Origin: Eledone cirrhosa
Lineage: Eukaryota
Direction of reading: 5' to 3'
Assembly: GCA_964016885.1 (NCBI GenBank)
Contig: OZ024748.1
Span: 59,396,001-59,460,000, forward strand
Length of the DNA stretch: 64,000 nucleotides
The translations under genes were made by a program, and so were the position numbers. The stretch's first letter is position 1. Each line of letters starts with the position of its first letter. Positions 14,499 through 62,137 of the stretch are shown in pieces. The notes below the pieces were generated by a model. The model saw nothing but the letters and a program-made list of their open reading frames with translations, did not search any database and was not told the DNA's origin.

Positions 14499-15563
14499 AC
14501 ACTGTAAATTGGTCATATAGCTATCACAACAAAAAGCATCCAGCCCACACTGTAAATTGGTCATATAGGTGTCACAACAAAAAGCACCCAGCCCACACTG
14601 TAAGGTGGTTGTGTAGCTATCATGACAGAAAGCATCCAGCCCACACTGTAAAGTGGTTGTGTAGCTATCACAACAGAAAGCATCCAACACACACTGTAAA
14701 GTGGTTGTGTAGGTATCACAACAGAAATCATCCAACACACACTGTAAAGTGATTGTGTAGGTATTACGACAAAAAGAACCCAGTCCACACTGTAAAGTGA
14801 TTGTGTAGGTATCACGACAGAAAGCATCCAGCACACACTGTAAAGTGGTTGTGTAGGTATCACAACAGAAAGCATCCAGCACACACTGTAAAGTGATTGT
14901 GTAGGTATCACAACAGAAAGCATCTAGCACACACTGTAAAGTGATTGTGTAGGTATCACGACAGAAAGCATCCAGCCCACACTGTAAAGTGATTGTGTAG
15001 GTATCACGACAGAAAGCATCCAGCCCACACTGTAAAGTGATTGTGTAGGTATTACGACAAAAAGAACCCAGTCCACACTGTAAAGTGATTGTGTAGGTAT
15101 CACAACAGAAAGCATCCAGCACACACTGTAAAGTGGTTGTGTAGGTATCACAACAGAAAGCATCCAGCCCACACTGTAAAGTGATTGTGTAGGTATTACG
15201 ACAAAAAGAACCCAGTCCACACTGTAAAGTGGTTGTGTAGGTATCACAACAGAAAGCATCCAGCACACACTGTAAAGTGATTGTGTAGGTATCACGACAG
15301 AAAGCATCCAGCCCACACTGTAAAGTGATTGTGTAGGTATTACGACAAAAAGAACCCAGTCCACACTGTAAAGTGGTTGTGTAGGTATCACAACAGAAAG
15401 CATCCAGCCCACACTGTAAAGTGGTTGTGTAGGTATCACGACAGAAAGCATCCAGCCCACACTGTAAAGTGATTGTGTAGGTATTACGACAAAAAGAACC
15501 CAGTCCACACTGCAAAGTGGTCATGTAAGTGTCACGACAAAAAGCACCCAGTGCACACTGTAA
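14499..15563 (+). repeat. 48-bp minisatellite, 22 units, inside an RTE 3' UTR (tail continues to ~15713)
   Basis: Unit cacactgtaaagtgRttgtgtaggtatcacRacagaaagcatccagc; followed by gttggcataaggaaggggatccagcc...ggacgttaaatgatg. Confidence 0.97.
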
Positions 15564-15884
15564 ATGTGGTTGGCATAAGGAAGGGGATCCAGCCATAGAA
15601 ACCAAGCCAGAAACAGTTCTGTATGAGCAAGACACAATCACCTGAGTCAACTTGCCTCAAATGGGAGAACCCGTCTAACCCATGATAGTGTGGAAAAAGG
15701 ACGTTAAATGATGGTAATATATATAGGTGATCAGTAGATTTGTGGTCTACTGAGGAAGGGACCAATATTAGTACTCTATGCTATAGCAGTGTATATATTA
15801 AGAAGAACAAAACCAAGTTTTATTAATAAAAACCTCAATGTGAAACCACATTTTGTTCTTTATATATATATATATATATATATA

Positions 15885-16073
15885 GGCCTTGCAATCGAAA
15901 GGTTGTGAGTTCAATTCTCAGACTGGGTGATATGTTGTTTCCTTGAGCAAGACACTTTATTTCACATTGCTCCAGTTTACTCAGCTGTAGAAATCAAGCC
16001 AGAATCAGTTCCCGTCCCACCCTTGAAGGCAGGGAAAAAGCGGATATAAAATGAAATGATGAAAAATGATGAT
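15885..16073 (+). mobile_element. CORE-SINE type A with an internal deletion
   Basis: Head and CORE are joined directly to the tail at cagctgtagaaat. Confidence 0.88.
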
Positions 16074-16365
16074 ATATATATATATAGGGAGGGAGAGAGA
16101 GAGAGTGAGATGTGTGTGTGTATGTGTGTGTGAACATCAAACAATCTTATATTATGCTTTTAGAATCAGTAAGTGTAAAAACAAATCTACTTGTTTGTTT
16201 TCATAATTACAAGATGTTCTATTTTCCTGTTTTAATACATATTGAAACAGTTCAATACGAGCGAGACATGGTCACCCCACCAATCTTGCCTTAAGTGGGA
16301 CAAACTCGTCTAACCCATGCTAACTTGGAAGATTGATGTTAAACGATGACGATGATGATATGTGT

Positions 16366-17021
16366 ATCATCATCATCATCATCAACGTTTAACGTCCGTG
16401 TTCCACGCTTGCATGGGTTTGGACGGGGGTAGTCCCACTTGAGGCAAGAGTGATTGTCTTGCTCGCATAGGACTGTCTGGCAGGTTTTCTACAGTTGGAT
16501 GCCCTTCCTAACACCAACCACATTTACAGTGTGGGTCTGGGAGGTTTTTACCGTGTTGCCTACACGGCCACATTACAGCGTGGACTGTGTGTTTTTTTGT
16601 CGTGACACCTACACGATCTCATTTGTTTCGGCCTGGATGGCGCGGCACCAACATAACTTTACATAGAACGGGGTGGTGTGGATGGGGTGGGGGTGGTGGC
16701 GGGACGGGGTGTATTTTGTTAGAGATGCCTACTGGCAAGGCGGGTCTTCTCTGTTACTGAGTACCGCCAAAGGTCTCGGTCCAGTGACATTGTCTTGGAG
16801 AGGTGTAAGTGTGTGAGGTCGGAGTTTATCAGCTCATCCCAGGTTTTTCTAGGTCTGCCTATTCCGTGGCTACCGTCTATCTTTATTGCCCTGCACTTTG
16901 TTATACAGCTATCGACTTTCATGCGCATCACGTGTCCATACCAACGCAGCCTTCTCTCGAGTAAACAACATCTGATCCCTCTTATCTCTAATTTTTTCCT
17001 TAGTTCGTTTATGCTTTGCCA
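16366..17021 (-). mobile_element. RTE LINE 3' end (ORF C-terminus, 3' UTR, (GAT)n tail)
   Basis: ELRKKLEIRGIRC..RRLRWYGHVMRM...GRPRKTWDE...DRDLWR; the UTR has two module copies and gttaggaagggcatcc. Confidence 0.92.
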
Positions 17022-17045
17022 TATATATATATATATATATATATA

Positions 17046-17205
17046 CACTGCAAAGTGGTCGTGTAGGCGCCACGGCAAAAAAGCACCCAGTACTCACTGT
17101 AAATGAGGTTGGTGTTAGGAAGGGCATCCAGCTGTAGAAATCAAGCCAGAATCAGTTCCTGTCCCACCCTTGCAAGCAGGAAAAAAGCGGATGTAAAATG
17201 AAAAA
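17046..17205 (+). mobile_element. SINE type A tail
   Basis: cactgcaaagtggtcgtgtagg...ttgcaagcaggaaaaaagcggatgtaaaatg. Confidence 0.85.
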
Positions 17206-17334
17206 TGAAATGAAAACACACACACAAACAGAGAGAGAGAGAGGCGTAGGTATAGATATACACACACCAAGAGAGATATTTTTCATACACACATACAGAT
17301 ATAAATACACTAATATACACATATATACATGTAT

Positions 17335-17696
17335 TTCATCATTTTACGTCCGCTTTTCCCTGCTTTGCAAGGGTGGGACGGGAACTGATTCTGGCTTGAT
17401 TTCTACAGCTGGATGCCCTTCCTAACACCAACCTCATTTACAGTGAGTGCTTGGGTGCTTTTTTGCCGTGGTACCTACACGTCCACTTTACAGTGTGGGC
17501 TGGGTGCTTTTTTGCCGTGGCACCCACGACCACTTTGCAGTGGACCCAGTCCTATCATCTCATTTCTACAGCTGAGTAAACTGGAGCAACGTGAAATAAA
17601 GTGTCTTGCTCAAGGAAACAACACATCACCAAGTCCAAGAATTGAATTCACAACCTTTCGATTGCAAGGTCAATGCCAGTAAGCCATGTACCTCCA
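17335..17696 (-). mobile_element. CORE-SINE type A with two module copies
   Basis: Near-identical to 2333-2666. Confidence 0.88.
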
Positions 17697-60023: not shown

Positions 60024-60093
60024 CTACGTATAAATATATATATATAGATACACACACATACAAGCACATACACACAAACATATATATATCTTT

Positions 60094-60280
60094 ATTATAT
60101 ATAGAAATGACTGCTATAGGACTAGAACTGTTTTATTTGAATGATGATTTCATACGAATGAAACAGTTTTAGTCCTGTAGAAGTCATTTCTATATATAAT
60201 GAAGATACCTATACTCTATCAATGTATTGAGTACTTTTCTCAACTATAGTTCACCCCAACACAATTCAGGAACCAACAGA
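60094..60280. mobile_element. Fold-back Penelope-like element of the 26157 family
   Basis: Palindrome 60094-60200; tgatgatttcatacgaatgaaacagttttagtcctgtag. Confidence 0.7.
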
Positions 60281-60297
60281 TATAGATATATATATAT

Positions 60298-60892
60298 CAT
60301 GAAAGACGACAGCTGTATAAAAAAGTGCAGGGCGATCAAAATAGATCAAAGCTAAGGAGTATGCAGACCCAGAAAAACCTGGGACGATTTGATAAGTTCC
60401 GACCTTACACACTTACACCTCTCCAAGACAATGTCACTGGTCCGAGATCTTTGGCGCTACACAGTAATATAGAAGACCCGCCTTGCCTAAGTACAAAGCG
60501 AAACCTAGTCAGTAGGCACCTCCTAACCAAAAATACCCCCCCCCCCCTCCCACTACCCCTACCAACACCTACACCACCCCTTTTGCTGTAAAGTTATGTT
60601 GGTGCCACAACATCCAGTCCTAAATAAATGAGGTCATGTAGGTGTCACGACAAAAAAACACACAGTCCAAGCTGTAATGTGGCCGTGTAGGTAACACGGT
60701 AAAAACCTCCCAGTCCACACTGTAAACGTGGTTGGTGTTAGGAGGGGCATCCAGCCATAGAAAACCCGCCAGACAATCCTATACGAGCAAGATAACCAAT
60801 CTTGCCTCACGTGGGACAATTCCCGTCTAAACCCATGCTAGCGTGGAAGATAGACGTTAAACGATGATGATGATGATGATGATGATGATGAT
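60298..60892 (+). mobile_element. RTE LINE 3' end
   Basis: MKDDSCIKKCRAIKID...RPRKTWDDLISSDLTHLHLSKTMSLVRDLWR, then UTR and (GAT)n. Confidence 0.9.
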
Positions 60893-61017
60893 ATATAATC
60901 AATATTTAATGCGAAATCGTATTTGGTAATACTTTAATGAATATATATATATATATAAATATATATATATATATACACACATTCAATTTCTCTATATACA
61001 TACATAGATACATACAT

Positions 61018-61252
61018 ATCATCATTATCACCGTTTTACGTTCATTCTTCCATGCTAGCATGGGTTAGACGGGTTGTCCTGTTGTGGGCAGTGTCTGGTC
61101 GGCTGACCATGCCTTGCTCATACAGGAACTGATTTTGGCTTGATTTCTACAGCTGGATGCCCTTCCTAACACTAACCTCATTTACAGTGAGTACTGGGTA
61201 CTTTTTTCCATGGTGCCTACACGTCCACTTTACAGTGTGGGCTGGGTGCTTT
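61018..61252 (-). mobile_element. RTE 3' UTR / SINE tail
   Basis: Reverse complement of the 9108-9348 type. Confidence 0.85.
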
Positions 61253-61778
61253 ATACATATATATAAACAATGATGATGAAAACACACATGCACACACGCA
61301 CATATATGATATACATATATATCTACATACACTCATATATGCATTTTCTAAACTAAAACAAGCTGTTTAAACAATTTAAAAGAAATTTATCATCTGAGTC
61401 CTGGAAAGTGTACTTGAGGACTCTGTCCCCCATGACCCTGCATGGAATAACTGGGCGTAGGATGTGGAAATGATGATGATGATGATGATGATGATGATCT
61501 CATTGTACATCTGTTGAAGATAAAATGAAACAGTTTAACCCTAGCAATACCAAACCCTCTGGAACAATTCCTATTCCCCTGGTTCTATGATACAAAACTA
61601 TATTTTGAAATGTTTATATTTATCTAAAATAAGTCCATTTACAATTTTATATAAAAACCTTTGTTAAGTTATGCTCCAAACATGGTCTCAATAATGAGGA
61701 GATTTATTATATTACTAAACCCATCCAAATTCTAGATTATTCTCAAATTAATTGAAAACCATAGTGTCGATGACACAA

Positions 61779-62137
61779 CAGTCCACACTGTAAGGTGGTC
61801 GTGTAGGAGACACGGTGAAAAGGTTCCCAGTCCACACTGTAAGGTGGTCGTGTAGGAGACACGGTGAAAAGGTTCCCAGTCCACACTGTAAGGTGGTCGT
61901 GTAGGAGACACGGTGAACAGGTTCCCAGTCCACACTGTAAGGTGGTCGTGTAGGAGACACGGTGAAAAGGTTCCCAGTCCACACTGTAAGGTGGTCGTGT
62001 AGGAGACACGGTGAAAAGGTTCCCAGTCCACACTGTAAGGTGGTCGTGTAGGAGACACGGTGAAAAGGTTCCCAGTCCACACTGTAAGGTGGTCGTGTAG
62101 GAGACACGGTGAAAAGGTTCCCAGTCCACACTGTAAA
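61779..62137 (+). repeat. 49-bp minisatellite, 7 nearly identical units plus a partial unit, followed by an RTE tail to ~62303
   Basis: Unit cccagtccacactgtaaggtggtcgtgtaggagacacggtgaaaaggtt. Confidence 0.97.

Follow-up and report, generated by a model that had tools for sequence, protein, structure and literature searches.

We found that a 48–49-nt module in the 3' UTR of RTE-like LINEs has repeatedly seeded minisatellites, as had been proposed in the initial annotation of this DNA, and more often than have neighbouring parts of the element. The module retrotransposes in one to few copies, and the evidence, whose genome-wide part comes from one assembly, makes it very probable that the long arrays grow later, in situ, by DNA-level duplication.

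In the window (the whole 64,000-nt stretch of Eledone cirrhosa DNA that was analysed), arrays were called with Tandem Repeats Finder (TRF), and the module was located with a profile built from array units. Several RTE-like LINE subfamilies have it in their 3' UTR, and a tRNA-like SINE with the same tail carries it too; the window arrays comprise 22.4, 12.5, 7.3 and 6.2 units. The following features were identified.

2333..2660, minus strand: one-unit SINE, module at 2451-2496.
9107-9340, plus strand, and 42920-43100, minus strand: RTE-B tail-like copies.
14499..15572, plus strand: array A (TRF 48 nt x 22.4, 89% matches), hosted by the 3' UTR of subfamily A, an old RTE-like group; the C-rich part of this UTR spans ~14400-14498, the common tail reaches ~15712, and a three-unit pattern recurs within the array.
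15882..16062, plus strand: SINE without a 127-nt segment (module included), lost between the second direct-repeat pair.
16366..17010, minus strand: very young single-ORF LINE, 5'-truncated, ORF end at ~16734-17010, closing with the tail and (GAT)n; its two diverged units lie at 16537-16623 (profile E 1e-8 and 1e-6) and a decayed third at 16644-16663.
17045..17210, plus strand: one-unit SINE-type tail, 5'-truncated, module at 17045-17091.
17336..17700, minus strand: two-unit SINE, A then B, units at 17452-17542.
17717..18217, plus strand: older RTE-like 3' end, two diverged units at 17955-18039.
34522..34915, plus strand: one-unit SINE, longer tail variant, module at 34696-34742.
38948..39191, minus strand: SINE-type tail, 5'-truncated, ~2.5 units at 39067-39191.
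39872..40260, plus strand: two-unit SINE, units at 40046-40138.
47388..47990, minus strand: array B (TRF 48 x 12.5, 98%), in an older family with the common tail type.
50411..50964, minus strand: tRNA-like SINE with six units at 50525-50827 (TRF 49 x 6.2), A- and B-type units mixed.
51109..51255, plus strand: SINE fragment with 1.6 units, in the opposite orientation to the six-unit copy, with which it has private changes in common.
59267..59595, plus strand: one-unit reference SINE, with tRNA-like head at 59268-59325, hairpin, module at 59430-59476 and common tail.
60300..60890, plus strand: older RTE-like 3' end, two diverged units at 60632-60714 and a decayed third at 60586-60616.
61018..61255, minus strand: RTE-B tail (the SINE's partner LINE type), 5'-truncated, ~1.3 units.
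61761..62300, plus strand: array C at 61779-62136 (TRF 49 x 7.3, 99%), within an RTE-like element of subfamily C that is truncated at its 5' end.

All LINE and SINE module copies in the window continue into one common tail that ends in (GAT)n, and for the LINE (GAT)n was present in each of the 30 loci read. Target-site duplications were uncallable for 8 window elements because their ends sit in TA or GAT runs. The ends of the host element (head or ORF end upstream, tail downstream) are kept around arrays A and C, around the six units of the SINE and at many further loci. Array B, whose own tail is gone, belongs to an older relative with the common tail type and lies in a candidate RTE 3' UTR. 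Arrays A, B and C belong to three different older subfamilies, and none lies in the young LINE at 16366. Array units aligned to the LINE UTR units and the SINE units in the profile search, which also recovered the module twice in each LINE 3' end that had been named, and SINEs with 1, 2, ~2.5 and 6 units. Furthermore, the flanks of 82 subfamily-C copies (24.8 kb) contained no array of at least three copies, compared with 9 arrays of the module.

The young LINE is ~4.4 kb long and has one open frame of 1,031-1,134 codons, in which Pfam detected Exo_endo_phos, RVT_1 and a PHD-like finger. Its protein had 220 homologues at E < 1e-100, many with the same domains and none named to a clade; on its architecture, we take it to be a putative RTE element. 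The SINE matches the LINE type RTE-B from the first unit onward, and its head scored 17.7 bits against the Rfam tRNA model, under the gathering score of 29. As described for Octopus, RTE-2_OV likewise has a single ORF of ~1,100 aa with endonuclease, RT and zinc finger, and UTRs of ~600 nt, but its 3' UTR is reported to consist mostly of microsatellite, the comparison being by description only (PMC9115989). In the literature covered, with most subscription papers and repeat databases outside it, we found no cephalopod description of the module; the supplements of a repeat-annotation paper (PMC13282606) may hold these families.

For subfamily C, units were counted from an upstream anchor sequence, in all 60 copies of that anchor. 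There were 47 copies with one unit, 3 with exact and 2 with partial losses, and 8 arrays, of 4, 19, 21, 28, 44, 45, 54 and at least 62 units. Among 30 consecutive copies on C1, 3 exact and 3 partial unit losses were observed. For the SINE, 70 of the 89 anchored copies were read, and these comprised 57 with one unit, 11 with two and 2 truncated; none of the 70, on chromosomes large or small, carried three or more units, so long SINE arrays are rare and a chromosome effect was not visible in that sample.

The unexpanded elements already carry short direct repeats around the unit. In the subfamily C master, one unit stands between perfect 15-nt direct repeats that are 49 nt apart, and in the one-unit SINE the repeat is 5-6 nt when perfect and 9-10 nt with one mismatch; the bracketed segment is in some copies lost exactly and in others gained. 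A second SINE segment, of 127 nt and with its own direct repeat, showed 190 duplication junctions. Although chromosomes C1-C8 hold 37 of the 89 SINE copies, none of the 60 listed loci of this second segment was found there (p=1e-10), and the loci were clustered, with 15 within C12:38.5-48.8 Mb.

Expansion of the module also depended on position. Of the 25 subfamily C copies on chromosomes of at most 61 Mb, 8 had arrays, and of the 35 on larger chromosomes none did (Fisher p=0.0004). Against this effect stands one subfamily C copy on C1 that has four units. Subfamily C copies within 30 Mb of a chromosome end were expanded in 8 of 30 cases versus 0 of 30 elsewhere (p=0.005), a result inseparable from chromosome size, and none of 5 distal copies that sit on large chromosomes was expanded. 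The re-duplicated junction had 5,936 exact matches, 47 of them on C1, which holds 6 of the 89 anchored SINE copies. In random stretches with families pooled, at least 4 units were present at 13 of 68 loci on small and 4 of 36 on large chromosomes (p=0.41), and in older families long arrays occur also on C1-C7 and C28. A pure subtelomere rule was rejected, as the first 3.5 Mb of C1 contain 100 terminal junctions and 1 re-duplicated junction. No zinc-finger genes lay beside expanded copies in the stretches examined.

In the mechanism that we propose, the first step is one that the copies show: masters have spread the module genome-wide as one unit or in a fixed two-unit form, and an old subfamily probably spread several units. 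Each unit, flanked as observed by a direct repeat or else by its sister unit, would be open to slippage or unequal exchange at the bracketing repeat; this first duplication would be the slow step, after which the array would lengthen and be partly homogenised. Growth would occur mostly on small chromosomes, in multi-megabase zones, as two of our tests, though not all, indicate. The zone effect would likely reflect more frequent meiotic recombination or repair in these zones.

An alternative is that multi-unit copies arise during insertion, through RT slippage or re-priming of the template at the direct repeat, and the initial annotation had suggested slippage as one source of the long arrays. 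Exact and partial unit losses occur also on large chromosomes and could arise at insertion, RT slippage has been proposed for the SVA VNTR (PMC12593883), and human TE-derived repeats are described as beginning more often in young families (PMC3389668). However, a dependence on chromosome would not be expected of slippage and yet was seen, the best 40 copies of the youngest LINE all match its 645-nt 3' end end-to-end, and subfamily C has no class of two or three units. Additionally, the units are younger than their host elements: in each of the 7 arrays that have a tail, units are less different from one another than the age of the element predicts if all had been made at insertion (in window array C, 0.29 changes between units versus 4.7 expected), although homogenisation could make insertion-age arrays look young. 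We therefore consider slippage very improbable as the source of the long arrays; it may have supplied first duplications or losses.

A second alternative is that masters with long arrays retrotransposed, as in SVA, and that their lengths then drifted. A comparison with the SVA VNTR had also been made in the initial annotation, and a VNTR carried as a long array was not supported. Masters carried one or two units in four subfamilies counted and probably more in one old subfamily, and since they carry few units this is not a travelling VNTR of the SVA type. Two-unit masters did retrotranspose (12,614 exact A|B junctions versus 43,145 terminal junctions), the loci of the array-B family have one junction in common, and 10 of the 11 anchored subfamily A copies carry 2-22 units, which makes a multi-unit master probable for that subfamily. 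Against this, one unit is the mode in both subfamily C (47/60) and the SINE (57/70), and no identical long arrays recurred at unrelated loci, a check that the initial annotation had offered: among 27 SINE arrays, 0 of 351 pairs were identical and 67% of units were private. Expanded copies did not cluster on a flank tree of the 60 subfamily-C copies (5 changes versus 4.2 when shuffled), a poorly supported, star-like tree with 0 well-supported branches, with which a common origin of these copies remains compatible. A long array in most full copies, the SVA trait, was absent, subfamily A being a possible exception. We consider retrotransposition of long arrays very improbable.

These data also bear on the earlier claim that the expansions were independent because each array has its own unit variant. 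That argument was not supported, since the variants are largely subfamily marks common to many loci; the long expansions are nevertheless locus-specific, which rests on the other evidence. The sole pair of SINE arrays with a common private run, of 7 units, represents a single insertion that was duplicated along with its flank, the two copies lying 34 kb from each other. The duplicated locus has at least 32 versus 20 units and is next to a gap in the assembly. A 49-nt back-jump was also present in 465 raw reads, with 11 starts, from a second sample labelled as the same species, so the multi-unit form is not only a product of assembly; an assembly artefact as sole cause was rejected by these reads and by the ordered variant units.

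The remaining explanation, that arrays are kept because extra RNA elements (a predicted pseudoknot and hairpin) improve binding of the LINE protein or RNA stability, is highly implausible: pairing in the pseudoknot exceeded controls and a second unit is fixed in several masters, but the structure was read from the same related sequences with about four independent two-sided events. Long arrays sit in old, dead copies, which do not pass them on; the youngest and most active LINE has a broken second stem in one of its units, as does the B unit; and the module matches no Rfam family. At most, this explanation would account for the masters' keeping the module and not for the long arrays. For the putative H-type pseudoknot, 82.8% of cells were paired versus 80.1 when shuffled (5/500), with 9 two-sided-change cells (1/500) and 25-57% in slid controls; for the terminal hairpin, 89.2% were paired, with one A-U/U-A switch. 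These values are only suggestive of such a fold. A few two-sided changes in the family sequences agree with it, and the repeated RNA element that the initial annotation had suggested may be a structure of this kind. Rfam scans of 16350-18250 and 59250-59620, with twister and HDV-like ribozymes in the library, returned no family for the module, and the Schistosoma twister paper, in the part available, concerns 5' ends (PMC8501958). It is conceivable, if rather doubtful, that the predicted pseudoknot-plus-hairpin is needed in the 3' RNA of RTE-type LINEs and was repeatedly duplicated in masters, that the hairpin doubles as the DNA direct repeat, and that the copies report multi-megabase, duplication-prone zones of small chromosomes that are not simply subtelomeric. 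In that reading, the repeated hairpin being a DNA direct repeat, tens of thousands of near-identical copies would act as built-in reporters.

In situ growth by DNA-level duplication has close precedents in frogs (Xenopus) and squamate reptiles, so minisatellites from SINE or LINE tails will be no surprise to the specialist. As described in PMC10794172, the minisatellite of Xenopus SINE/tRNA-V also amplifies part of a SINE 3' UTR tail (52 bp), and there too intact SINEs lie everywhere while expansion, read as recombination-driven, is confined to one kind of chromosome region. There, expansion lies in the terminal 30 Mb, for which a recombination map was measured, whereas here it lies on small chromosomes and in zones within them, and our module is found again in several LINE subfamilies besides the SINE. 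In the squamate sSat1-3, on the account in PMC10702118, tandem units likewise derive from part of a SINE whose ends remain on either side, number from few to hundreds, differ in length at orthologous loci and have a non-random chromosomal position; however, those units are 70-290 nt long and subtelomeric, whereas ours are 48-49 nt, come from a LINE-derived tail, are bracketed by direct repeats and undergo exact losses.

The short direct repeats around the unit are the trait of the Haber-Louis short-flanking-repeat model, which, together with minisatellites derived from Alu and B1, is summarised in PMC6947457 and PMC3389668. In those accounts, as proposed here, a first duplication between short direct repeats is followed by growth in situ, and older families hold more units. 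One dominant hotspot across several subfamilies distinguishes our case from the human study, in which a genome-wide positional hotspot was not seen (PMC3389668). The SVA VNTR is similarly a tandem repeat inside a non-LTR retroelement whose length differs from copy to copy, but it is described as belonging constitutively to the mobile RNA, with a length of 387-4150 bp that is greater in younger subfamilies (PMC12593883), whereas in our case only one to a few units move with the element and the long arrays lie in older, immobile copies.

The module thus offers a natural experiment, with the same substrate at more than 40,000 places and with losses, gains and ages that can be measured, so that repeat length, age and chromosomal context can be separated by census. 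The arrays may serve as a proxy map of where recombination or repair is active in an animal that lacks a genetic map. Should the predicted pseudoknot be real, it would be a candidate for the element by which a stringent LINE-SINE pair is recognised.

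Tandem arrays with units of 48-49 nt were detected where the initial annotation had placed them, and its placing of the module in both LINE 3' ends and SINE copies was borne out by a profile built from the array units: every one of the three LINE 3' ends of the window gave two matches, and SINE-type copies gave 1, 2, about 2.5 or 6. Arrays A, B and C each lie in a different older subfamily (A, B and C, respectively):

14499-15572, array A, 48 nt x 22.4
47388-47990, array B, 48 nt x 12.5
50525-50827, SINE array, 49 nt x 6.2
61779-62136, array C, 49 nt x 7.3

The window (C8:59396001-59460000 of this genome, G000) is on a chromosome of 60.6 Mb, roughly 1.15 Mb short of its end; the genome totals 3.0 Gb. 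The animal is probably an octopus, to judge from its repeats. A three-unit pattern recurs within array A (14930-15505) and a five-unit higher-order repeat occurs four times over in another stretch that was read (L230), showing that several units were copied in a single step. The six-unit SINE (50721-50964) and a partial copy at a distance of 150 nt (51109-51255) are inverted and have private changes in common, which suggests that an inverted duplication took place locally, around an unrelated SINE. The window also holds non-module tandem arrays at 6289-6667 (69 nt), 13382-13639 (101 nt) and 46156-46671 (29 nt units), as well as two 0.9-kb copies, 93% identical, with a transposase-like reading frame (43584-44479 and 53611-54516), which we take to be Tc1/mariner-like.

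A very young LINE is represented by the fragment at 16366-17010; its best 40 copies match the fragment's 645 nt near end-to-end at 100% rounded identity. Full copies of about 4.4 kb have a single open frame, 1,134 codons at its longest, encoding an endonuclease, a reverse transcriptase (RT) and a PHD-like finger, and terminate in (GAT)n at 30/30 loci, an architecture on the basis of which we consider this LINE RTE-like. The finger directly follows the RT domain in the LINE ORF at L034:3124-6525, and likewise in many of 220 homologues. At least six subfamilies with a common tail are distinguished by their units. The SINE has a weakly tRNA-like head, and a hairpin of 11-12 bp immediately upstream of its module (59398-59430); sequence comparison derived its 3' part from the partner LINE type RTE-B, not from the young LINE. 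That SINEs acquire parts of RTE LINEs is established (PMC5786205).

Genome-wide, terminal junctions gave 43,145 exact matches and A|B junctions (an A-type unit followed by a B-type unit) gave 12,614. This latter count, together with the order A then B in 27 of 30 two-unit SINEs that a query of two units retrieved from unrelated loci, indicated that the two-unit form was itself a master. The subfamily A master was probably multi-unit, because 2-22 units were present in 10/11 anchored copies. The subfamily C master had one unit; among 30 consecutive copies on chromosome C1, 22 carried one unit and 1 carried four, 3 had no unit, 3 had part of a unit, and 1 was truncated. The initial annotation had argued that each array's own unit variant proved independent expansion. 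These variants reappear at many other loci and therefore mark subfamilies, so that the argument fails, although the conclusion of independent expansion still stands.

We examined all 60 subfamily C copies of a 43-nt anchor ending where the unit begins. One unit was found in 47, exact losses in 3, partial losses in 2 and arrays in 8 (4, 19, 21, 28, 44, 45, 54 and at least 62 units), with no 2- or 3-unit copies among the 60. Arrays occurred in 8/25 copies on chromosomes of at most 61 Mb versus 0/35 on those of at least 94 Mb (p = 0.0004), and in 4/4 anchored copies on C25-C27; with array C as the query, 3/40 scored loci were on chromosomes of at least 94 Mb. All 8 arrays were within 30 Mb of a chromosome end, a distance inseparable here from chromosome size, and 0/5 distal copies on large chromosomes were expanded. 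On a tree of the flanks, which had no well-supported branch, expanded copies took 5 changes versus 4.2 when shuffled.

On both sides of the subfamily C unit stands a 15-nt direct repeat without mismatches (CAGTCCACACTGTAA), which outranked all others within 500 nt of 3' end; in exact losses the two repeats had collapsed to one. One-unit copies differed by 4.8 changes per unit, and units within arrays by 0.3-4.2. Unit differences were below the expectation from the element's own tail in 7/7 tail-bearing arrays (for window array C, 0.29 versus 4.7 expected). Among SINE arrays of at least 5 units (n = 27), 0/351 pairs were identical and 67% of units were private; the sole pair with a long private run in common was one insertion duplicated with its flank. 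One SINE array is found in both L104 and L107 (C27:6.87 and 6.90 Mb), together with its flanking sequence; the two versions, with at least 32 and 20 units, lie beside an assembly gap and represent a segmental duplication or uncollapsed haplotypes.

Other segments of the elements served as controls. No arrays of at least 3 copies were found in 24.8 kb of flanks of 82 subfamily C copies, versus 9 module arrays, and across the window and 964 kb of stretches picked by position, arrays of at least 4 copies comprised 13 of the module, 1 of module plus tail, 2 of LINE ORF and 3 of an unrelated SINE. Duplication also affects a second segment of the SINE, which is 127 nt long and has a separate 13-15-nt repeat on either side; 190 duplication junctions were counted versus 36,137 intact sites. 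The 100 junctions listed of these 190 represent 60 loci, none of which was on C1-C8 (p = 1e-10), chromosomes that make up 67% of the genome and hold 37/89 anchored SINE copies. The listed loci cluster, for example 15 in C12:38.5-48.8 Mb; further multi-megabase zones were seen at C10:33.8-37.0, C18:19.6-23.1, C22:7.1-13.0 and C24:11.4-15.1 Mb. The re-duplicated module junction had 5,936 matches, 47 of them (0.8%) on C1, which has 6/89 SINE copies.

The 22-Mb C27 carries about half of the best 40 long SINE arrays, and minisatellites of any origin reach the highest density sampled there, at 19 per 100 kb versus 2.4 on C1-C4. C2H2-like zinc-finger motifs number 34.5 per 100 kb on C27 (L153, L154, L157, L158) versus 1-5 elsewhere. 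On C27, an unrelated SINE (of the type at window 22720-22915) seeds 33-nt and 79-nt minisatellites (L152:536-820, L152:4726-5315, L159:6109-7624), and LINE ORF-end pieces form arrays of 47-nt, 80-nt and longer units (L144:6678-8013, L156:4080-4481, L145:1211-2550).

Several results went against positional expansion. A SINE replicate covered 70 of the 89 anchored copies, taking the first 30 from C1-C7 and every one of the 40 from C17-C27. It gave 57 with one unit, 11 with two and 2 truncated; no copy had more than two units, and the chromosome effect was not seen in this sample. SINE arrays are thus rare per copy, in line with a weaker bracket (5-6 nt perfect) and a probably lower age. When families were pooled, at least 4 units were present at 13/68 module loci on small versus 4/36 on large chromosomes (p = 0.41), and in the older families, A and B, large chromosomes bear long arrays too.

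The module arrays are real and well supported. Masters had few units, direct repeats bracket the unit, exact losses and gains occur, young units sit in old elements, and expansion was positionally biased in two tests. We suggest that a slow first duplication, through slippage or unequal exchange, would be followed by fast array growth, a sequence of steps proposed because of the gap at 2-3 units; the duplication zones may mark regions active in recombination or repair. Some first duplications or losses may stem from RT slippage, which does not explain the long arrays.

The module might also act as an RNA element. The family sequences fit an H-type pseudoknot (a stem of 6 bp, a loop of 2 nt, a crossing stem of 5 bp and an A-rich loop) and, after it, a hairpin with the direct repeat as its loop. 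In 19 window units, 82.8% of pseudoknot cells were paired, versus 80.1 in shuffles (5/500 as high) and 25-57% in slid controls, with pairs varying as U-A/U-G/C-G, U-A/A-U and C-G/U-G/U-A at three positions; the hairpin had 89.2% paired, with an A-U/U-A switch. The sequences compared are related, and the structure was itself read from them; the changes represent roughly four independent events. One unit of the youngest LINE has a disrupted crossing stem, and Rfam gave no match to the module. We judge the odds slightly in favor of a conserved fold, and a role for the long arrays appears unlikely. An SVA-type VNTR was rejected, since most copies of that repeat are long and the younger ones longer still (PMC12593883), a distribution from which the module arrays differ.

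The closest case is a Xenopus minisatellite from a 52-bp part of a SINE 3' tail, with expansion restricted to copies that are subtelomeric and highly recombining (PMC10794172). Squamate SINE-derived satellites (PMC10702118) and Alu/B1 minisatellites originating at short direct repeats (PMC6947457, PMC3389668) are of the same kind. We found no published account of the module in cephalopods in the literature searched. As a process, its expansion is unsurprising and belongs to an already known kind; the module copies are useful as natural reporters, in large number, of the sites and mechanisms of minisatellite origin.
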